From positions 1 through 42,144 of IMG/VR virus record IMGVR_UViG_3300028138_000002: DNA of 42,144 bases, one strand, 5' to 3'. The position numbers were made by a program, and so were the translations under genes. Position 1 is the stretch's first letter, and each line of letters starts with the position of its first letter. The notes beneath the pieces are model-generated. The model searched no databases and was not told the DNA's origin. It saw only the letters and a list, made by a program, of their open reading frames with translations. Positions 5,694 to 40,113 of this stretch are shown here, one piece after another. Source of the DNA: a virus (Duplodnaviria > Caudoviricetes).

Positions 5694-6002
5694 ATGGCGG
5701 ACAACACGACACCACCTGACGATCCGGACAAGCAGACGTGGACGCCGCCCGGCAACTGGCGAGATCCGACCAGCCAGAGCAATGATTTCTGGACCAATCT
5801 GGCGCAGGCGCAGGGCATCGCGCAGCACCCGCAAGGGGCCGCGCAACAACAATCCCTGGCGGCGGCCGGCTGGACGGCGCAGCCATCGCCGCAGCAGCAG
5901 GTCAGCCCGCAGACGCTGCAACAGATCGTGCAGATGTTGCAGCAGCGCCAGCCCGGGGTGGCGCGACCCGCGACCCCCGGCCTGCTCGGCGCGGCGGTGT
6001 AA
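5694..6002 (+). CDS. putative internal virion protein
   Basis: Within the ejection cluster; Q-rich; ends TPGLLGAAV. Confidence 0.6.
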   Translation: MADNTTPPDDPDKQTWTPPGNWRDPTSQSNDFWTNLAQAQGIAQHPQGAAQQQSLAAAGWTAQPSPQQQVSPQTLQQIVQMLQQRQPGVARPATPGLLGAAV

Positions 6003-6014
6003 CAAGGGGCGACC

Positions 6015-8405
6015 ATGGCCGACGACACACCCGACACCGCCGCACCGCCCTCCGCCGCCGGCATCGACCCGGCGACGCTGGCGCAACTGATCCGGCAGAC
6101 GCTGCGTCCGCCGCCGCCCGTCCCCGACGCGGCGGCGGGGCCGTCGTCACGCGACGGACGCGGCTTCCTGTCGCTGCTCGGCGAAGCGCTCGGCGGCGGC
6201 CAGCAGTATGGCTCGACGGCGGAACGTGAGCAGGGCGGGCTGGCGGCGGCGCAGGCGGCCGGCGCACGGATGATGATCGCGTCGGACTGGAGCGCCACGC
6301 CGCACACGCTGGGATCGATCATCGGGCAGGGCTACGGCGCGGCGCGCGAGAGCCTCGGCCAGACGCAGTCGGTTTCGGCGGCCCGCGCGGCGGCGGCGCA
6401 GGCGCTGGCACATCAGCAGCAGGAGGACCAGCTCGCCAGGATCAAGGAGGCGATCCCGCTGCTGACGCTGCAGCAGCAGCAGGCGCTGCTGGCGCAGACC
6501 GCCGGCATGCCGTCCTCGCTCGGTGGCGGCGGCAACATCGGCACGGCCGGTGACGGGACCTATGAGGGAGCGGTCGGCGGCCACGAGGGCACCGGGCAGA
6601 ACCCGCGCTCGTCGGCGTTCGGCACCGGCCAGTTCCTGGCCTCGACATGGCGCGACTTCGCCGCCGCGAACCCGGATCTGTTCAAGGGGATGACGCCGGA
6701 ACAGGTCCTGGCGGCGCGGGCCGACCCGGCGATCGGACGCCAGGCGATCACCTGGCTGGCGCAGCAGAACGCCGACGCGCTGACGAAGCAGGGTGTGACG
6801 CCGGACGGTCCCCTCCTCGGCATCGCGCACTATCTCGGCGTCGGGCCGGCGGCGGCCATCGCCAAGGCGCCCCCGACCGCGCCGGTGTCGAACTATGTCA
6901 GCGCCGCCGCGCTGGCGGCCAATCCTGAACTCGCGCGCATGACCGTGGGCCAGATGCGTGCCCGCTACGCCAACACGCCGGCGCCGTCGTTCCTGCGCCC
7001 CGGCCCGACGCCAGGGGCGCCACCCGGGGCGCCGGGCACGCAGCAGGCCGGCATCCCGGCGCCGCCGCGCCCGGTGGGCCAGCAGCCCGGCGCGCCGGTG
7101 CAGATCCCGCCGCCCACGGTGCCGACCGTGCAGACCGCCGGCCCGGGCGCCGGCACGCCGCCGGAAACCCCACCCGCCCCCACGCCGACCCCCGGCGCGG
7201 CTCCAGGCGCCCCGCCGGGCGGGGTGGACCCGGAGACAGGCCTGCCGGTCGCCGCCGGGCTGACGCCCCCGCCAGGGGCCGCGACGTCGTCGCCGACGAT
7301 GGAACCCCCGCCGGTGTTCACCTACGTGCCGCGTCCGCTGCCGGCCTCGCTGTTGCCGACGGGTGGGCTGTCGCCGGGCGAGCAGCAGACGTTCGACGCG
7401 GCGCGACGGGCCTATGAAAGCGCGATCCATGTCCCCGGCGTCACGCCGCAGCAGCGGCAGGCGGCCGAGATGCAGCTGCAGAAAACCCTCGACAGTCAGC
7501 TGACGGTGCAGGCCGGGCACGCCAAGGAGCTGTCCGACGCGGTCGTGAAGCTCGGCGAGGCGGACTACAAGCAGCAGCAAGGCGCGTTCGATAAGCAGCT
7601 GGAAGATTATTACAAGCGCGGCCAGTTCGCCCGCGAGCAGGCGGCGAGGGAGCAGGACGCGCGCACGGCGGCGGCGAACAAGCTCGCCGAGATCGAGGCC
7701 ACCGGCCGCCAGCAGCGCGAAAGCACCGCCGCCGGGGCGGTGGTGGAGAGCAACAAGCGGGTGCGGGATTCGATCGGCGACGACGCCACGGCGGCGGCGA
7801 AATCCATTCCGCAGCTGGAAGCATTGCGCGCGTTGTCGGACAACGTCGACGAAAGCACCGCGCCGTGGGCCAAGATGAACACGCGGCTGGCGACGATCCC
7901 GTTTGGCGGCACGACGCTGCTGAACCGGCTGACCCAGCTCGGGCTGGTCGACCCGACCACGGCCGGGCCGGTGCAGCAGCTGCAGGGCGGCATCTCGGGC
8001 GTGGTGGCACAGCTGCGCCAGGGCATGTCGATGGGCGCGCTGTCGGATCGGGATCTGAGCTTCATCGAGAGCCTCGGCCCCAGCCTCTACGAGGACAAGG
8101 CGACGCGCTCGGCGGTCATCTCCTACCTGCAACAGTCGCAGCGGGCGAAGATCCGTTTCAACAGCGTGTTCAACGAGGAGATGGCGAAGCCCGGCGCCAG
8201 CGCCGCCAGCGCGCTCGCCGCCGCGCGGGACTACATGGACAGCAAGCACCCGATCGTGCCGCAGATGACGCCGGACCTTGAAGCCCACTGGACCGATCCG
8301 GCACCGGACTGGCGGCAGAAGCGGATCGAATGGGCCAGGGATAACGGGGTGCGGCCCAACATGCTGGTGCGGCGGCCCAATGGCGCGCTGAAGCTGCTGG
8401 ACTAA
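6015..8405 (+). CDS. internal virion protein with lysozyme-like/lytic transglycosylase domain
   Basis: GHEGTGQNPRSSAFGTGQFLASTW...AHYLG matches the SLT/lysozyme-like motif pattern; Pro-rich linker; coiled-coil C-terminal half. Confidence 0.8.
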   Translation: MADDTPDTAAPPSAAGIDPATLAQLIRQTLRPPPPVPDAAAGPSSRDGRGFLSLLGEALGGGQQYGSTAEREQGGLAAAQAAGARMMIASDWSATPHTLGSIIGQGYGAARESLGQTQSVSAARAAAAQALAHQQQEDQLARIKEAIPLLTLQQQQALLAQTAGMPSSLGGGGNIGTAGDGTYEGAVGGHEGTGQNPRSSAFGTGQFLASTWRDFAAANPDLFKGMTPEQVLAARADPAIGRQAITWLAQQNADALTKQGVTPDGPLLGIAHYLGVGPAAAIAKAPPTAPVSNYVSAAALAANPELARMTVGQMRARYANTPAPSFLRPGPTPGAPPGAPGTQQAGIPAPPRPVGQQPGAPVQIPPPTVPTVQTAGPGAGTPPETPPAPTPTPGAAPGAPPGGVDPETGLPVAAGLTPPPGAATSSPTMEPPPVFTYVPRPLPASLLPTGGLSPGEQQTFDAARRAYESAIHVPGVTPQQRQAAEMQLQKTLDSQLTVQAGHAKELSDAVVKLGEADYKQQQGAFDKQLEDYYKRGQFAREQAAREQDARTAAANKLAEIEATGRQQRESTAAGAVVESNKRVRDSIGDDATAAAKSIPQLEALRALSDNVDESTAPWAKMNTRLATIPFGGTTLLNRLTQLGLVDPTTAGPVQQLQGGISGVVAQLRQGMSMGALSDRDLSFIESLGPSLYEDKATRSAVISYLQQSQRAKIRFNSVFNEEMAKPGASAASALAAARDYMDSKHPIVPQMTPDLEAHWTDPAPDWRQKRIEWARDNGVRPNMLVRRPNGALKLLD

Positions 8406-30363: not shown

Positions 30364-30621
30364 GTGGCCCTGACGCCTGACCAACAGCGCCGCGCGATGG
30401 CGGCGGAGCGGCTGCTGGCCGATCCGGCCTTCACCGAGATCCTCGACCGCATCGTGGAGGACGCCGCCAGCCAGGCGCTCTATGTCGATGATCCCGCCCA
30501 ACGCGAGGCGAACCGGCAGATGGTGCTGGCGATCACCCGCATCCGGGGCGAGCTGAAGGCTGACGCCGAGCTGCCCGAATCCGTTCGTGACGCCGAGATC
30601 CTGGCGAAGAGCATGGAGTAG
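30364..30621 (+). CDS. small head-module protein (usually found between portal and scaffold)
   Basis: AERLLADPAF.E helical motif; position. Confidence 0.65.
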   Translation: MALTPDQQRRAMAAERLLADPAFTEILDRIVEDAASQALYVDDPAQREANRQMVLAITRIRGELKADAELPESVRDAEILAKSME

Positions 30622-30625
30622 CCGC

Positions 30626-32392
30626 ATGCCGTCGTTGCTCGACCCGCCCGACGCGACCTCCACTGACGCCAGCAACCCGATCAGCGCCGCTTTGGGCGAG
30701 ATCTACCGCCGCGTGACCGGCTATATGTCGGGATCGCCGGACATGGCGTTCCGCTACGCCGACAACCCGATCGGCACCGAGACGACGCGTCCCCATCAGA
30801 CCGTCGGGATGCCGCGTGATTTCGTCCCCGCCGCGACGGTCGGCGGCGGCCTGTGGGGTCCTGAACGGCCGATCGCGCGGGCTGACGTGGACGCGTTCCG
30901 CGCCGGATCGCAGAACCTCTATGACCAGGCGTCGCTGCTCGCCGGCAGCCGGGGCCTGTTTGAGCCGGGAGGCACCCCCGGCGGTCAGGTCGCGCTGCCG
31001 GCGCGACGTCGTCTGGCCAACCCGCCGCCCGCCCGTGGCCTGCTCGGCGGCGCCACCGAGCCGCTGCCGGACCTGCCCACCCCGCCGCCGGCGGCGGGGT
31101 CGAACAACCCGCCGTCGCTGCTGGGTGACGCGGTCGTGCCGGCGCCGGGCGCGGCCGATCGGATCTCGACGCGCATACCCTGGGCCAAGGGCCAGACGGG
31201 TGATCCGCACGCCTCCGCCGACCTGACGGTGGGGATCGACAGCTCCCGCGCGTCCGGTGACGCCTACGTGAAGAACGCCAGGTTCATCGACGGCTATTCC
31301 GACATCCCCACGGCGGGCCTGGCGGACGACCCCGAGGCGCTGCACCAGGCGCTGATCTCGCACGCCAGGGACAATCTGCTGTTCCTGCACGATTCCATTC
31401 CCGCCGAGATCCGCGAACAGTCGAAGCTCTGGTATGACGGCGCCAACAACATCGCTCAGCGGTGGGCCGACCAGTATGGCATCTCGCCGCGCCAGGCCGC
31501 CGGCACGCTCGCCGCCCTGTCGCCGCAGAAAGACTGGTTCCAGAACGTCAGCCTGGCGAAGCGGCTGCTCGATATCCGTCAGGGCCAGGGCGCCACGATC
31601 GCGACGCCTGAGATGCGGCCGTGGTTCGATCGTTTCGTCAACTCGCAGAAGGACCCCAACGACGCCACGGCCTATCGGGCGCATATCGACGGTTTCGAGG
31701 GCAAACCGCTGTCGGAAATCAGCGATCCCGAGGCGCAGGCGCTGTGGATGCGGGCGTTTGATGAGGCGCACAACCCGCGCGGGTATGATGTCGTCACGCC
31801 ACAGGGCGATTTCGCCGGTCCCGCGCTCAACAAGGACGGCTCGTCGCGCAAGGTGGGCTGGGGGTCGCTCGGCGAGATCTCCAAGGCGCTCGGCACGCTT
31901 CAGGAGGACAGCACGGCCAACATCAGCCAGCTGATGGGCGCCAATCACAAGGTGCGGAACTTCTACAATAACATTATTTCGCCAAACAGCTTAAATGGAG
32001 ACGTGACGATCGACACGCACGCCATCGCGGCGGCGCATCTGCGTCCGCTCGCCGGTGGCGATAACGAGGTGAAGATCGGGCTGGGACTAAGCCCTGGCTC
32101 GGGGAACGCCGCGACCGGTTCGAAGGGTCTTTATGGCGCCTACGCCGAGGCTTATCGGCAGGCGGCGGCGCGGCTCGGCATTCTGCCGCGCGAGCTGCAG
32201 TCGATCACCTGGGAGGGCGTCCGGGGCCTCTATTCGGACGTGCAGAAGCGTAACAAGCCGTTCACCGACACCATCAACGGATTTTGGAACCAACACGGCA
32301 ATGGAGAGATCAGTGCCAACGACGCGAGGGACGCCAGCGTCCGAGCAGCTGGAGGAATTGACCCGCCTGAGTGGTGGCGACCCGGTTCTTAA
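30626..32392 (+). CDS. protein with low-complexity N-terminus and HhH DNA-glycosylase-like (DUF7178-like) C-terminal domain
   Basis: LWYDGA, AALSPQKDW..NV, KVRNFYNNI..P, VTIDTHA, Y..YAEAY..AA..LG..P...Q.ITW. Confidence 0.65.
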   Translation: MPSLLDPPDATSTDASNPISAALGEIYRRVTGYMSGSPDMAFRYADNPIGTETTRPHQTVGMPRDFVPAATVGGGLWGPERPIARADVDAFRAGSQNLYDQASLLAGSRGLFEPGGTPGGQVALPARRRLANPPPARGLLGGATEPLPDLPTPPPAAGSNNPPSLLGDAVVPAPGAADRISTRIPWAKGQTGDPHASADLTVGIDSSRASGDAYVKNARFIDGYSDIPTAGLADDPEALHQALISHARDNLLFLHDSIPAEIREQSKLWYDGANNIAQRWADQYGISPRQAAGTLAALSPQKDWFQNVSLAKRLLDIRQGQGATIATPEMRPWFDRFVNSQKDPNDATAYRAHIDGFEGKPLSEISDPEAQALWMRAFDEAHNPRGYDVVTPQGDFAGPALNKDGSSRKVGWGSLGEISKALGTLQEDSTANISQLMGANHKVRNFYNNIISPNSLNGDVTIDTHAIAAAHLRPLAGGDNEVKIGLGLSPGSGNAATGSKGLYGAYAEAYRQAAARLGILPRELQSITWEGVRGLYSDVQKRNKPFTDTINGFWNQHGNGEISANDARDASVRAAGGIDPPEWWRPGS

Positions 32393-33699: not shown

Positions 33700-34233
33700 T
33701 TATCGCGGCTGCGGGACGGGCGGCAGCCCCTGGTCGGGGTATACCGGTGACGACGGCAGTCCCTGGTCGGGGTATGGCTGGTTACCTGGCAGCCCCTGGT
33801 CCGGGTGCGGCTGGCTGCCCGGCAGATCGTGGCCCGGGCTGAGCGACGGGTCGACCACGGTATAGCCGATCACCTGCAGCCCGCCGGCCGCGCTGATCGC
33901 GCAGATCGCGACGAGGAGCTTTTGCGACGGCAGGCCATGGTCGGGGCGGCCGTGCCCCGGCAGCCCCTGGTCGGGATGCCCGTGGACCGGCGGCAACCCC
34001 TGGTCGGGCCGCTCGGGCCGCACCGGCGGCCAGATGCTGCCCGGGGGCATTCCGAAATCCGGTGGCAGCGGCGTCGGCGGCCAGATGCCGACCGGCGGTG
34101 GCCAGATCCCCGGCGGCGGTGGTGGCATCACGATGGGGTGGCCGGGGGTCCCGGGCGGTGTCGGGAGCGTGTTGTCGGGTCCACCGGGGACGACGATGTA
34201 GCTGCCGGCGGGGACGGGGAAGGAGGAGGCCAT
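33700..34233 (-). CDS. Pro/Gly-rich PDQGLP-repeat protein (antisense insert in head module)
   Basis: AAGGA RBS before ATG 34233; five PDQGLP plus PDHGLP, PDNTLP and PGHDLP variants; three IWPP repeats. Confidence 0.75.
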   Translation of the reverse strand: MASSFPVPAGSYIVVPGGPDNTLPTPPGTPGHPIVMPPPPPGIWPPPVGIWPPTPLPPDFGMPPGSIWPPVRPERPDQGLPPVHGHPDQGLPGHGRPDHGLPSQKLLVAICAISAAGGLQVIGYTVVDPSLSPGHDLPGSQPHPDQGLPGNQPYPDQGLPSSPVYPDQGLPPVPQPR

Positions 34234-34300
34234 GGCGGTCCTTTCAGGTTGAAAGCGCACCCGGTCTGGCATGTTCGCGCCGCTTTGTCGCGATCCCCTC

Positions 34301-34330
34301 TGGACAAAAAGTGGTGGATGTCTCGATAGT
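34301..34330 (+). promoter_or_regulatory. putative promoter for the major capsid transcript
   Basis: TGGACA-N18-GATAGT just upstream of the structured leader. Confidence 0.4.
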
Positions 34331-34339
34331 GACACCGTC

Positions 34340-34490
34340 GCCCGATGGAGTCCCAACGGACCAACCGGAGAGCGGGCCGTGCCGTCGCCTGGATGATCAC
34401 GCGCCGCCGGGAGTCCTCGGGACCAACCCGGCATCAGCCGTGACCGACCCATCGCGAAACCCATGATCTGGTTTCACCGCGTGAAACGCC
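34340..34490 (+). ncRNA. candidate structured cis-regulatory leader of the major capsid gene
   Basis: Two hairpins share GG-A-GUCC-loop-GGAC-CAA-CC (34347-34366, 34410-34428) with different loops and outer stems; third hairpin gtttcac-cgc-gtgaaac. Confidence 0.5.
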
Positions 34491-34533
34491 CTCGACCGGC
34501 GTTCCTTCACGCATGCGATGGAGTAACGAGCAA

Positions 34534-35517
34534 ATGGCTCTTGGCTCACAGGGCGCCGCGCCAGCCAATACTTATATGGAAACCGCCGCCGTCGGGGTGC
34601 GTGAAGATCTCGCTGATGTGATCTATAGAATAGATCCAGAAGAATGCCCCCTTGTTAGTGCCTGTTCTCGGGTTTCCGCGAACCAGGTGCTTACCGAGTG
34701 GCTGGTTCAGGAGCTGAACGCAGCCTCCGATAACGCTCAGCCCGAGGGCTTCACCGCGTCCATGCAGGCGGTCGTCAAGCCCGTCAGGCTGAATAATGTT
34801 TGCCAGATCATGGCCCGCACGGTGGGCGTGTCGAACACGCTCCGCAGCGTCGACATGGTCGGCGGCGAGGACGAGTACAACCGCCAGCTCGTGTTGCGCG
34901 GCATGGAGATCAAGCGCGACCTTGAGCTTGCCATCACGTCGCCGCTGGTCCGCACGATCACCGATCCGCGTCATATGTCGGGGCTGCCCTGTTACATCAT
35001 CAACGGCTCGCGTGGCGCCGGCGCCGGCGCGATGCCGGTCGGTGACGGTTCCAACGCCGGCACGGCGGGGACACTGCGCGATCTGACGCTGGCGATGGTC
35101 GACGCGGCCACGCAGCAGTGCTGGCAGGCCGGCGGCAAGCCGACGCTCGGCATCATGTCCGGCAACGTGAAAGCGTATTTCTCGACACTTTCGCAAGGCG
35201 GCACGGGCAACGCGGTGGTGGCGCAGAACATCCAGAACGTCACCAGCGCCGAGTCCGTGACGATCATGGGCGCGGTGGACGTGTATCGGACCAATTTCGG
35301 AACGATCCAGCTGGCCCCCGATCGGTTCTGCCCGGCGCATCAGATCCTGCTGGTGTCGACGGATTACGTCGAACTGGCGCCGCTGCCGGGACGTGACATC
35401 GTGCAGCAGGACTACGCGGTCACCGGCGACAACAGCCAGGGCGGCGTGGTGTTCGAAGGCTGCATCAGGCCGACCGCGCCGAAATCGCACGCCTGGATCG
35501 CGGATCTGAACCAGTAG
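34534..35517 (+). CDS. major capsid protein (DUF5309/SU10-like HK97 fold)
   Basis: G.REDL.D.IY.I.PEE.P, EW....L, N..QI, E.KRD.E motifs; GGAG RBS; follows scaffold. Confidence 0.9.
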   Translation: MALGSQGAAPANTYMETAAVGVREDLADVIYRIDPEECPLVSACSRVSANQVLTEWLVQELNAASDNAQPEGFTASMQAVVKPVRLNNVCQIMARTVGVSNTLRSVDMVGGEDEYNRQLVLRGMEIKRDLELAITSPLVRTITDPRHMSGLPCYIINGSRGAGAGAMPVGDGSNAGTAGTLRDLTLAMVDAATQQCWQAGGKPTLGIMSGNVKAYFSTLSQGGTGNAVVAQNIQNVTSAESVTIMGAVDVYRTNFGTIQLAPDRFCPAHQILLVSTDYVELAPLPGRDIVQQDYAVTGDNSQGGVVFEGCIRPTAPKSHAWIADLNQ

Positions 35518-35518
35518 C

Positions 35519-35830
35519 ATGGGCGCGCTGCTTTATGAGCGGTTCGACCCGGTCACCGGTCGCTATACCGAGATCGAAACGGACGCCGAGGCCGGGCTGC
35601 TGATCACCCACAGCCAGGACACCCGTCCGATCGTGGAAAGCGCCAGGACGATCGCGGCGAACTTCGATCCGCTCGTGCGTCGCGACACGATCCATGTCGC
35701 GCGCATCCCGGTGGTGATCTGGCGACAGCTGCAGAAGCTCGGGATCGCGCAGGACGAAAAGCGGCTGAACGCGTGGCTGAACGAGCGAGATAATTCCGTA
35801 TTCAGAACGGACGACAGGAGTGTACTCTGA
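35519..35830 (+). CDS. conserved protein downstream of MCP
   Basis: QD..PI.E, HVARIP.V, WLN..DN..FRT motif. Confidence 0.75.
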   Translation: MGALLYERFDPVTGRYTEIETDAEAGLLITHSQDTRPIVESARTIAANFDPLVRRDTIHVARIPVVIWRQLQKLGIAQDEKRLNAWLNERDNSVFRTDDRSVL

Positions 35831-36333: not shown

Positions 36334-36996
36334 TTGGCCTCCTACCAGCAGCTGCAGGACGATGTCGCGGGCTGGCTGAACCGCCGCGACATCGCGTCCC
36401 GTATCCCCGCCTGGGTCCTCATGGTCGAGACGGAGATCGCCGAGACGTTGCGCGCCCGTTGCATGGTCACGTCGGGCATCCAGCCGATCGACGCGCCCTA
36501 CATCACGCTGCCGGTTGACTTCGCGCAGATGGAAAGCATCCGCGACGCGACGTCGGGTGAGCTGCTGGAGCTGAAGGATGAGTGGTCGGGGCACTGGACC
36601 TCGCCCTACAGCGACGCGTGGCGCGACGGCGCGCTGGTGGTCACCACGCGGGCCTGCACGCAGTATCGTCTGGTGCATGATTGCATCGAGTTCCTGCCGC
36701 ATCCGGTGATTCCCGATCCGCCCGACCCGGCATGGAAACCGCAACAGGTGCTGATGGGCTGGTATGCGAAGCCGAAACCGCTGCTGCTGCCGTCCGATAC
36801 CAATTCGGTGCTGGAGAACCTCTACGCGGTCTATCTGTTCGGCGTGTGCAAATATGGCGCGATGTTTGAACTGGACGACGATCGCGCGCAGCAGATGGAC
36901 GCGGCGTGGCAGCAGACGGTGACAAGGGCGAACCTTTGGAAGCAACAATCAGACTACGGCGGCGCGCCGTTGCGGGCTGAGCTGGTGAGCTTCTGA
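36334..36996 (+). CDS. head-tail adaptor (tail tubular protein A-like)
   Basis: Y..LQ..VA.WLNR.D....IP.....E..I...LR, LP.DF, YL.G motifs; TTG start. Confidence 0.8.
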   Translation: MASYQQLQDDVAGWLNRRDIASRIPAWVLMVETEIAETLRARCMVTSGIQPIDAPYITLPVDFAQMESIRDATSGELLELKDEWSGHWTSPYSDAWRDGALVVTTRACTQYRLVHDCIEFLPHPVIPDPPDPAWKPQQVLMGWYAKPKPLLLPSDTNSVLENLYAVYLFGVCKYGAMFELDDDRAQQMDAAWQQTVTRANLWKQQSDYGGAPLRAELVSF

Positions 36997-39680
36997 TGCC
37001 CATCGTCCTCACCCGCGCCAGCAAGCAGGAAGCCCGCTACAAGGCGCTGGGCGGGGTCGAGCATTGTTCCCGTTGCCGGTTCTTCATGCCGCAGGGCACC
37101 TGCGGGCGCATCATCGGGCCGGTTTCGCCGGAAGGCTGGTGCAGGTTCTATTCGCGCGAGATGGTGCAGCGGTGGTCCAATCCCGGCTATGCCGGCGGCG
37201 GGGCCGCGCCGCCGACGCAGGATTTCGACTTCACGCAAGGCGTCATGCCGCCCGCTATCACGTTCACGCGCGGCTCGTCAGCCACGTATTTTGATAACGC
37301 CGGGGTAATGCGGACGGCCGGTAACGGCGTGCCCAGGTTCGATTACGACCCCGGAACACTGGTGCTGCGTGGTCTGCTGATGGAAGAGCCGCGCACCAAC
37401 TCAATTCGCAACTCAATGATGACCGGCGCGGTCCCAGGCTCGCCCGGCACGCTGCCGACGAACTGGGGCCTGCAGCAGACCGGCGGACTGACATGGAGCG
37501 TGATCGGCACGGGCGTCGAGTCCGGTATCACGTATATCGACGTGCGCCTGACCGGAACGACGACGAATAACACGCCGTCGTTCATTCATTTCGAGCCGAA
37601 TACGACGCCGTGGGCCGCGTCGGTCGGTCAGATCTGGGCTTCAAGCTTCTACGTTCGTCTGGTCGGCGGATCGCTGTCGGGCCTGACCCAGATGTCGCCG
37701 CTGCTGTTCGAAACGCCATCCAACGCGCAACATGCCTCGCCCCCGGTCTGGCCGACCAACGCGCCGCTGAACGTGCAGCGCGTGTCGCTGAACTACACGC
37801 TGGCGACGGCGGGCACGACGGGTGCGTCCCTGTCGTTCAAGGTCAACGTGACGGGCAGCGGGGTCGCGGTCGACGCGACGTTTCGCATCGGCGCCCCGCA
37901 GGCGGAGCTGGGCCAGTCACCGAGTAGCTTCATCGCGACGACGAACGGCGTGGTGACGCGACCGCAGGATGTCGCCGCCGTGCCGGCCGGCGCGTGGCTC
38001 AGCCCGACGACGCACACGCTGGAAGCGGACTATCAGGTGCCGTTCGCGTCGCTGACAGCGGGCGTGACGAACGCCGCCGCCGCGCTGGACGATGGAACAT
38101 TCAGCAATCAATATGTCTTGCGCTGCGCCCCGGGCGGCCAGATGGTCGCGGCGGCGTTTTCCGCGAACGCGCTGGTCAGCAACATGGTTGGCGCCGCTTA
38201 TTACGCCAACGTCACGCAGAAGCTCATCAGCACGTTCGACAGCGCGGGCCTCGCCGGAACCGGCGTCGTGAACGGAGCCACTCCCGCTCCGTTCACCTTC
38301 ACCGCCGCGCCGATCGGGCTTTCGCGGCTCGTCATCGGCTCTGGCCGCTCGAGCGTGCTGAACGGCTGGGTGCGCCGCGTGCGCTACTGGCCACGGTTGC
38401 TTTCGAACGCGGAACTGGTTCAGGCGACCCCGGGTGAAGCCTACACGGTGGATTTCACCATCAACGGCGAGATCCCCCCGGGGATCAACACGACGCGAAA
38501 CTCAATCGCGTCGTATTTCGACAGCACCGGAACGATGCAGACCGTGCCGGTCCATACACCGCGCCAGGACTTCGATCCGACAACGCTGGCGATGCGCGGT
38601 CTGCTCGTGGAGGAGACGCGGACCAACAGCATCCTCAACAGCACGATGGTCGGCGTCGTCGCGGGCACGCCGGGCACTGATCCCACCGGATGGACCGTGG
38701 GCGTTGGTGGCACCGGTCTGACGAGACAGATCGTCGGCACCGGTGTCGATCGCGGTATCGCCTACGTGGACTATCGTTTCACCGCCCCAACAACGGTGGC
38801 GGGGAACATGACGTTTGTCTTCACGGGCGCGCAGGCCGCCGGGGTCGCGGCGGCGGCGGGCCAGGTGTGGACGCAATCGCTCTATATCGCCCTGGCCGGC
38901 GGCACGATGCCGCCAAACACGGGAGCGCTGCACCGGCTGAACCAGTGGGATGCGACGCCCGCCAATCTCGGCGCGATCACCGGCCCGGGCGCGTCAATCC
39001 CGACGACGGCGCCGCTCGCCACGCAACGTCAGCGCGGCGTGTTCCCGGCGCTGGCGGCGAACTGCGCGTGGATACAGCCGTTCTGGTTGCTGGGCATCGC
39101 CGCTTCCGCGTCGCCCGTTGATTTCACGCTCCGCGTCGGCGCGCCGCAGCTGGAACTCGGTGCGTTCGCGACGTCGTTCATTCCGACGACGAACGCCACG
39201 GTCACCCGGATCAACGACATCGTCACTTACACAAACGCGCCGATCAACGCCGCCGCCGGGTCGCTCGTGGCGGAGGTGTTCCTGCCGCAGGTGCCGACAG
39301 CGAACAACAACATCGAGTTCGCGTTCATCGACCAGGGTTCTACGACCGATTGCATGGGCCTGCGTCAGGCCGGCTTCGCTGGTCAGGCGACGATCACCTT
39401 CTGGGTCGGTAACGTGAACCAGATGTCGCAGAGCATGGGCACCGCGCTCAACGCCAACGCGGTCAACAAGGTCGGTCTGACCTATGATCGGACCAGTCTG
39501 GCGGTCACCGGCTCATCGAATGGCTCGGCGCCGATCGCCGGCACGTCAGCCGCGTTGCCGTCACCCACGCGGATGACGTTCGGCTCGGGACGGAACACTC
39601 TCATCAACGGCCATGTCCGTAAGATCACGTACTGGCCACGCGCGTTGACCGACGCCGAGTTGCGACAGGCGACGACATGA
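36996..39680 (+). CDS. putative virion fibre/spike protein: N-terminal HiPIP-like Cys domain plus two tandem ~410-aa beta-sandwich (LamG-like) repeats
   Basis: N-terminal Y..C24xxC27..C36..PEGWC49; repeats DFT.G..P..I..TR.S.A.YFD..G...PR.D.DP.TL..RGLL.EE.RTNSI...YWPR.L..AEL. Confidence 0.75.
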   Translation: MPIVLTRASKQEARYKALGGVEHCSRCRFFMPQGTCGRIIGPVSPEGWCRFYSREMVQRWSNPGYAGGGAAPPTQDFDFTQGVMPPAITFTRGSSATYFDNAGVMRTAGNGVPRFDYDPGTLVLRGLLMEEPRTNSIRNSMMTGAVPGSPGTLPTNWGLQQTGGLTWSVIGTGVESGITYIDVRLTGTTTNNTPSFIHFEPNTTPWAASVGQIWASSFYVRLVGGSLSGLTQMSPLLFETPSNAQHASPPVWPTNAPLNVQRVSLNYTLATAGTTGASLSFKVNVTGSGVAVDATFRIGAPQAELGQSPSSFIATTNGVVTRPQDVAAVPAGAWLSPTTHTLEADYQVPFASLTAGVTNAAAALDDGTFSNQYVLRCAPGGQMVAAAFSANALVSNMVGAAYYANVTQKLISTFDSAGLAGTGVVNGATPAPFTFTAAPIGLSRLVIGSGRSSVLNGWVRRVRYWPRLLSNAELVQATPGEAYTVDFTINGEIPPGINTTRNSIASYFDSTGTMQTVPVHTPRQDFDPTTLAMRGLLVEETRTNSILNSTMVGVVAGTPGTDPTGWTVGVGGTGLTRQIVGTGVDRGIAYVDYRFTAPTTVAGNMTFVFTGAQAAGVAAAAGQVWTQSLYIALAGGTMPPNTGALHRLNQWDATPANLGAITGPGASIPTTAPLATQRQRGVFPALAANCAWIQPFWLLGIAASASPVDFTLRVGAPQLELGAFATSFIPTTNATVTRINDIVTYTNAPINAAAGSLVAEVFLPQVPTANNNIEFAFIDQGSTTDCMGLRQAGFAGQATITFWVGNVNQMSQSMGTALNANAVNKVGLTYDRTSLAVTGSSNGSAPIAGTSAALPSPTRMTFGSGRNTLINGHVRKITYWPRALTDAELRQATT

Positions 39681-39693
39681 GCGAGGACGTCTG

Positions 39694-40113
39694 ATGCCCG
39701 GCAGCGCCACCTCCTACCTGCGTCAGATGGTGCTTGGGCACACGCTCGGCTTCCTCGGCTACGCGATGCCGCAACCGGCCTTCGTCGGGCTTTGCACGAC
39801 CGCCCCGAGCGGCACGGCGACCGGCGTCGAGGTTGTCGGCGGCGGCTACACGCGCCAACAGGGTGCCTACGGCATGGTAGCCGGGCGCAACGATCTGGCG
39901 GCCAACACGGCGACGATCGAATGGGCGCCGGCGACGGCGACCTGGGGCGTGATCGGCTGGTTTGAGCTGTGGGACGCGCTGACCGGCGGTAACCGGCTCT
40001 ATTGGGGGCCTCTGGTCGATCCGGTCGACGGCGTGACGCCGATCACCCGGCAGATCCTGACGGGTGACATTATGCGGATGTCCGCCGGCGCGCTGATCGT
40101 CCAGGCGATCTGA
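39694..40113 (+). CDS. conserved phage structural protein (tail-associated)
   Basis: YL...L.H, VGL.T..P.....G.EV.GGGY.RQ, ATATWG.I, DA.TGGN.L motifs. Confidence 0.75.
   Translation: MPGSATSYLRQMVLGHTLGFLGYAMPQPAFVGLCTTAPSGTATGVEVVGGGYTRQQGAYGMVAGRNDLAANTATIEWAPATATWGVIGWFELWDALTGGNRLYWGPLVDPVDGVTPITRQILTGDIMRMSAGALIVQAI

Follow-up and report, generated by a model that had tools for sequence, protein, structure and literature searches.

The viral record IMGVR_UViG_3300028138_000002, taken here at its full length of 42,144 bases (the window), is a complete SU10-like podophage genome (GC content 68%, direct terminal repeats). Directly behind its head-tail adaptor gene it encodes a predicted spike protein of 894 amino acids (aa) that joins a domain related to high-potential iron-sulfur proteins (HiPIPs) to two lectin-like repeats. 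HiPIPs are exported bacterial electron carriers whose [4Fe-4S] 3+/2+ couple lies at +50 to +500 mV. In the reading that we favour, and to which we give an even chance, this four-Cys domain would be a structural iron-sulfur (Fe-S) docking module fastening an optional, predicted polysaccharide-binding adhesin to the virion. Judged from its sequence, the protein would be an N-anchored phage lectin fibre with the HiPIP-like domain in the anchor slot. Its open reading frame (ORF) is organized as follows:

36996..39680, + strand: 894-aa spike ORF with HiPIP-like domain, linker and two lectin repeats; predicted accessory spike or fibre (phrog_5939 tail protein, E 2.5e-80; RcGTA Rcc01080, E 1.1e-4)
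36996..37013, + strand: short hydrophobic leader, residues 1-6, with no twin-arginine signal and no T4-type capsid-targeting tag
37011..37157, + strand: PioC/Iro-type HiPIP-like domain, residues 6-54, predicted [4Fe-4S] (Cys24/27/36/49, Tyr15, Phe30, Trp48)
37158..37226, + strand: predicted short helix and Gly/Pro linker, residues 55-77
37227..38429, + strand: lectin repeat 1, residues 78-478, all-beta, with ConA/LamG- and CBM-like sandwiches (model pLDDT mostly >85 from residue 71)
38451..39674, + strand: lectin repeat 2, residues 486-893, 39% identical to repeat 1

A HiPIP-like domain fused to lectin repeats

The four-Cys motif, searched as a regular expression, has a single match in the six frames of the window, and only three further Cys occur in the remaining 845 residues of the spike protein. 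As an earlier note on this DNA had described, the translated ORF places Cys24, Cys27, Cys36 and Cys49 together with Tyr15, Phe30, Trp48 and Tyr52, the aromatic shield of HiPIPs. The note's statement that Acidithiobacillus Iro has the same x2/x8/x12 spacing was also correct: the Iro ligands are Cys24/27/36/49, at positions identical to those of the phage domain, with Tyr14, Phe30 and Tyr48 (PMC10654088). A phmmer search of residues 1-68 against the PDB matched residues 6-53 to PioC (6xyv, E 2.1e-8), and the other two of the three matches are HiPIPs as well (E 0.4-0.5). In the profile check that the note had proposed, Pfam HIPIP (PF01355) gives a score of 17.1-17.3 bits (E 0.007), which lies below the curated gathering cut-off of 22; some homologues pass this cut-off. 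A Pfam search of the whole 894-aa protein gave no match reaching cut-off, and PHROGs holds no family for the domain. A profile-to-PDB search was circular, since its alignment held cellular HiPIPs, and is excluded from the evidence.

Structure prediction, likewise suggested in the note, modelled residues 1-65 as a HiPIP fold (AlphaFold, pLDDT 79, alignment of 98 sequences including cellular HiPIPs). All 18 Foldseek rows for this model are HiPIPs, the best at E 6.4e-3 and none at 0.001. Structure comparison with VIA over 48,161 chains placed PioC at Z 6.9 (rmsd 2.0 over 53), where a Z below 8 is weak by itself; seven of its ten rows are HiPIPs and the other three are glycyl-radical-enzyme small subunits. 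The ESM Atlas' own model aligns residues 2-56 with a HiPIP cluster at a TM of 0.77, and feature matches of 0.82-0.83 in the same resource serve as leads only. The absence of a signal peptide and the linker to two lectin repeats are as the note had claimed; a twin-arginine signal is found neither in the spike protein nor in any of 19 lectin-fused matches to a DNA pattern described below. With a score below the Pfam cut-off and no export signal, the domain is by its sequence HiPIP-like and not a canonical HiPIP, and it likely binds a [4Fe-4S] cluster.

The note had left room for a real start downstream of the Cys cluster. The start lies upstream of it: the ATG of the spike ORF overlaps the adaptor stop codon (TGATG), the first Cys codon follows at 37065, and in 38 of 39 fused loci the start stands 21-30 codons before the first Cys and overlaps a TGA or TAA, not verified in each case as the stop of the upstream gene. 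ATG31 and ATG56 were considered as downstream starts and rejected, because relatives keep the upstream one. The protein begins MPIVLT, and the stretch RASKQ that the note quoted as its beginning starts at residue 7.

The two repeats match phrog_5939, a tail protein family (E 2.5e-80), and the RcGTA head spike fibre Rcc01080 (E 1.1e-4 over ~300 residues), the latter from residue 28 of that fibre onward. The confident model of repeat 1 is all-beta, with matches to phage ConA-like proteins as well as to CBM40, galectin and LamG folds; the models suggest that the repeats are lectin-like and bind polysaccharide. The RcGTA head spike fibre is a capsule-binding monomer anchored by residues 2-10 (PMC7296036, PMC10218006). 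The lectin module is widespread, with an estimated ~2,300 viral stretches.

Spread and conservation of the fusion

Homologous fusions, which the note had proposed to look for, are numerous. Direct search found 21 proteins with the fusion. Among 80 viral loci chosen by adaptor similarity, which include redundant contigs and two copies of the window phage, 39 encode HiPIP-like domain and lectin as one ORF, one has the lectin alone, none has the domain alone, and 40 have neither within the available DNA. The fused ORFs are 385 to 898 aa long, contain one or two repeats and sit just behind the adaptor gene in the 39 carriers, sometimes separated from it by a small HNH-like gene. Such ORFs, named by eye, directly follow the adaptor gene in several relatives (L006:994-1317, L008:5470-5949, L015:5498-5962, L170, L206). 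All four Cys and the Tyr and Trp are kept in 31 of 31 aligned fused domains. As a separate observation, Ser replaces the fourth Cys in two homologues, P0065 and P0139.

The fused gene is optional and the domain patchy in its occurrence. In the 40 records without the fusion the HiPIP-like domain is nowhere to be found and the lectin occurs in two; all six records that are at least 90% complete have neither (positive controls include G034). On a quick adaptor tree, presence of the fusion changes 13 times, at least seven of them forced. With a profile built from four phage-only domains, 723 cluster representatives score at E 0.001 or better; 53 of the best 150 carry the lectin module, and the rest of these 150 include signal-less short proteins and twin-arginine-led HiPIPs (E 5e-11 to 1e-6). 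No bacterial copy of the fusion was seen in 28 GTDB loci, 19 of them translated: none is lectin-fused and 17 are short ORFs, most twin-arginine-led.

The N-terminal slot and possible docking partners

Two neighbouring products are considered as docking partners:

36334..36996, + strand: SU10 gp11-type head-tail adaptor, candidate docking partner (PF24175; PDB 7z47, E 2.4e-13); its stop overlaps the spike ORF start
34513..35517, + strand: SU10-type major capsid protein (MCP), alternative docking partner (Pfam, PHROGs, covariation)

Of the best 80 among 474 confirmed viral lectin loci, 14 have a HiPIP-like domain as leader in front of the lectin module, 8 a twin-arginine-like leader, 10 one of the GLGL type that RcGTA has (a class called by regular expression, one member doubtful) and 48 something else; in L012 the module stands at the end of a gp80 fibre. 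Since the module carries such varied leaders elsewhere, the HiPIP-like domain appears to fill an 'address' slot. Some phage lectins look Tat-exported, with a twin-arginine-like (Tat) signal ending in Ala-x-Ala/Gln and often followed by a Cys pair, as in L322 (G034:C1 ~5990-7280) and L323 (G019:C1 ~1160 onward); twin-arginine-like leaders on the lectin module also occur in L217, L230, L232, L235, L237, L266, L277 and L282.

Position argues for docking, given that the RcGTA homologue is anchored via residues 2-10 and the sequence match starts only at its residue 28. In SU10 the adaptor gp11 holds the N-termini of the fibre gp12 (PMC9509320), and the adaptors of A1002 and VP1 carry flexible accessory proteins (PMC13730344). 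Precedents for the fold and for the cofactor can be found as well: the beta and gamma subunits of benzylsuccinate synthase are described in PMC12590467 as HiPIP folds that act as accessory, non-electron-transfer subunits, and a structural Fe-S cluster is resolved in the RcGTA hub, a virion protein (PMC7296036).

Further hints come from comparison of 30 hand-dereplicated carriers, in which pairwise identity of the domain tracks that of the MCP (Spearman 0.57, 323 pairs) and the adaptor (0.50, 430 pairs) and does not track that of the 65 residues with which the lectin part of the protein begins (0.11). Fused domains have a mean net charge of +6.4 (n=31) versus +2.7 for stand-alone, +4.0 for T4-tagged, +1.3 for other fused and +2.6 for 25 hand-picked Tat-led domains, and Arg14, Gly19, Glu22, Arg28 and Ser53 are group-specific, at 97-100% in the 31 fused domains. 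The adaptors are acidic (net charge -6 to -14), and a variable adaptor loop measures at least 22 aa in 27 of 28 carriers versus 15 of 30 non-carriers. These patterns of charge, covariation and loop length are hints of docking, not proof.

As we picture it, the spike protein would be made in the host cytoplasm late in infection, where host Fe-S machinery would load the cluster. The cluster would give the domain, 50 residues long, its compact fold, a basic knob that would bind an acidic neck or capsid surface, with the adaptor dock domain as first candidate and the capsid as second. The flexible linker would let one or two lectin repeats grip capsule or surface sugars of the host ahead of the tail fibres, in the manner of the RcGTA head fibre. 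The role of the cluster would be structural rather than electron carriage. Of the three roles that the note had offered, assembly, redox sensing and receptor mimicry, the first fits best and the last fits worst.

HiPIP-like domains elsewhere in phages

A DNA pattern covering one Cys spacing found 120 viral stretches (~600 estimated in the viral collection), 14 with an internal stop. Ninety-six of these score as HiPIP-like, namely 19 lectin fusions, 48 short stand-alone ORFs and 29 other fusions, classes that are partly uncertain because 40 loci have short flanks. Twenty-two of the stand-alone ORFs begin with a leader resembling the T4 capsid-targeting sequence, MKTYQEFIAE at the N-terminus of internal head proteins (PMC8442874; also PMC3012670), and such a look-alike occurs in none of the 19 lectin-fused matches. 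The tagged ORFs are 66-67 aa long and lie on low-GC viral contigs (L017, L022, L093 and 19 more).

In 37 hand-picked loci and among the protein matches, the domain also forms part of portals, head-maturation proteases and MuF and NUDIX fusions (L016:823-3099, L080:859-3144, L021:1123-3417, L028:2887-5148, L040:2878-3711; P0108, P0111, P0130, P0142) or lies close to terminase genes. Signal-less HiPIP-like domains are common in predicted phage head proteins. In L045, L051 and L067 the domain lies within low-GC polyproteins of 760-1980 aa that start with a cytidyltransferase domain.

In a quick tree of 126 domains and 48 columns, the 31 lectin-fused domains share a branch (SH-aLRT 95) with six further viral domains, including one cut fusion; none of the 25 Tat-bearing cellular domains falls in it. 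Because the fused domains branch with viral and not with Tat-led ones, a phage gene is the probable source of the fusion. Neither this tree nor the GC content at third codon positions (0.87 versus 0.81-0.85 in the neighbours) favours a HiPIP gene captured recently from a host.

Weighing the alternatives

Several observations weigh against a docking role. AlphaFold with a phage-only alignment (residues 1-480) left residues 1-69 unfolded at pLDDT ~40. The dN/dS of the domain (0.32, 109 pairs) resembles that of the lectin start (0.38) and is looser than that of the adaptor (0.12) or the MCP (0.04). The covariation pairs are non-independent, gene adjacency is a possible cause of their correlation, and the lectin start tracks nothing (0.05-0.2). 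The threshold for the adaptor loop was set after seeing the data, and the comparison omits three of 61 rows; related phages have both traits in common, and in L210 the fusion goes with a 13-aa loop. The domain also stands behind T4-type tags and within portal, protease and MuF proteins, where an anchor is not needed, which points to a function of its own. Finally, two HiPIP-less free lectin genes in close relatives carry twin-arginine leaders, so that the lectin module need not be part of the virion.

The most serious competitor, unlikely as we judge it and still credible, lets the spike dock by its short leader or by the helix that follows the domain and makes the HiPIP-like domain a passenger, that is, redox-active or iron cargo for oxidative protection, as an iron store or with whatever job it has in other phage heads. 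Its main argument is that the domain is also cargo inside phage heads; only 19 of the 96 HiPIP-like pattern matches are lectin fusions, and in the quick tree the fused domains group with signal-less stand-alone phage domains. Nine residues suffice to anchor the RcGTA fibre (PMC7296036, PMC10218006), and the aromatic cage of redox HiPIPs is retained. Such cargo sits poorly with a leader that varies in length among relatives, is as short as 4-6 residues in some of them and lacks conservation, and with the invariant basic residues peculiar to the fused group.

We think it improbable that the protein is no virion part but a soluble lectin that lysis sets free or that works on the host envelope. 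The HiPIP-like domain would then be a module for folding, routing or sensing that can be exchanged for a Tat signal. The optional nature of the gene would suit such a lectin, as would the twin-arginine-like leaders on the module in two close relatives (L202/G034, L323/G019) and in 8 of the 80 lectin loci; the fixed position between adaptor and fibre genes with an overlapping start, the relationship to phage tail families and to an established virion fibre, and the fused form without export signal speak against it.

Still less probable is a HiPIP-derived fold that holds Zn, a redox-inert cluster or no cluster. The sub-threshold Pfam score, the modest Foldseek and VIA values and the passage of a protein made in the cytoplasm to air outside would allow for it, and they are opposed by the exact Iro spacing with its Tyr/Phe/Trp shield, the Tyr, Trp and Cys kept in every fused domain, and fold searches returning HiPIPs in 18 of 18 Foldseek and 7 of 10 VIA rows, the remaining three being glycyl-radical-enzyme small subunits.

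Receptor mimicry, with a host protein of iron oxidation or photosynthetic electron transfer, or an importer of Fe-S proteins, as the receptor that the displayed domain would bind, is unlikely and ranks last: PioC as closest solved relative, ferredoxin import through the outer membrane by Pectobacterium (PMC6042079) and the Ferrojan-horse idea, which concerns iron in tail fibres, stand against an N-terminal slot that is the virion-bound end in RcGTA and SU10 fibres, a domain sequence that follows the capsid and adaptor genes and derives from stand-alone phage domains rather than the 25 Tat-bearing cellular ones (quick tree), PioC partners reached from the periplasm (PMC10654088), and lectin repeats that already supply a binding function.

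The docking reading can be extended to a switch, a long shot in our estimate, in which the spike would attach or stay only with the [4Fe-4S] knob loaded and in the right state. Host iron status at assembly, or oxygen and redox conditions outside, would then set the strength of progeny adsorption, and a periplasmic electron carrier would have been turned into a general virion module, placed inside heads in some groups and serving as a redox-gated adhesin latch here.

Comparison with known systems

The phage domain shares with PioC (Rhodopseudomonas palustris TIE-1, 6xyv) and Iro (Acidithiobacillus ferrooxidans) the Cys spacing x2/x8/x12, the Tyr, Phe and GWC, a PioC match at E 2e-8 and the predicted fold; unlike them it lacks a Tat signal, is lectin-fused and phage-encoded, is more basic and falls below the Pfam cut-off. 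The RcGTA fibre Rcc01080 (6tb9) has a homologous beta-rich body (E 1e-4), an N-terminal anchor slot and proposed polysaccharide binding. It is held by a Leu-Gly peptide on a pentameric base protein, whereas the spike protein has the HiPIP-like domain, an added LamG sandwich and, here, a tandem duplication. The Leu-Gly repeat anchor is absent from the spike protein and present in other lectin loci, and no scanned window protein is named as a pentameric jelly-roll base protein by Pfam or PHROGs; the 103-aa gene after the MCP gene is without PDB match.

Similarly, SU10 gp12 on gp11 offers a homologous adaptor (E 2e-13), a fibre gene numbered next to it and N-terminal docking, but gp12 is a trimer with a coiled coil, to which no sequence match of the spike protein was seen. 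In benzylsuccinate synthase beta and gamma a HiPIP-like [4Fe-4S] fold is an accessory protein-binding subunit (Z 3.1 to the domain model); those are cytoplasmic enzyme subunits at 14-16% identity. The RcGTA hub, a protein of the lambda gpL type, resembles the spike protein in its four-Cys Fe-S site, where a cluster sits in a virion protein, and differs in fold and as a core baseplate protein of long-tailed particles.

Largely open-access literature searched by title and abstract opening gave no phage-encoded HiPIP, and automatic 'HiPIP' labels exist on viral proteins in the ESM Atlas. If the docking reading holds, a HiPIP-fold cluster at the base of an adhesin would represent a new mode of virion construction and bring several irons per copy to the surface of the particle; it would also warn against taking phage 'HiPIP' matches as auxiliary metabolic genes. 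The fusion also offers a small, expressible test case for signal-less HiPIP domains in phages generally, a far larger and unexplained family (~600 stretches estimated from one spacing alone).

Gene neighbourhood and further observations

The window encodes a portal, capsid and adaptor of SU10 type together with a GP4 gp80-type fibre and an S74-chaperone fibre (Pfam, PHROGs). No close cultured relative was found, with MCP identity of 35-42% at best, and among 50,697 phage records searched with the HiPIP-like domain only three match (E 0.08-0.5); cultured relatives at this distance do not allow a host to be named. Two further genes flank the region:

39694..40113, + strand: GP4 gp80-type fibre protein, next gene downstream of the spike ORF (PF23140, E 1e-26)
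35519-35830: conserved 103-aa gene after the capsid gene (phrog_3982, a family without functional annotation)

A 254-aa Pro-rich ORF with HPDQGLP-like repeats, for which Pfam and PHROGs searches give no match, runs opposite to its neighbours (33700-34464, - strand) in the interval that separates the scaffold gene from the capsid gene. A DUF7178 protein is encoded at 30587-32392 between portal and scaffold genes; phrog_3842, which is related to its family, also matches the HiPIP-ended protein of L044. In three relatives the match to the MCP gene is broken by ~300 bases near residue 300-305 (L010:3087-3383, L011:2457-2753, L015:2550-2858), possibly by an intron or insertion.

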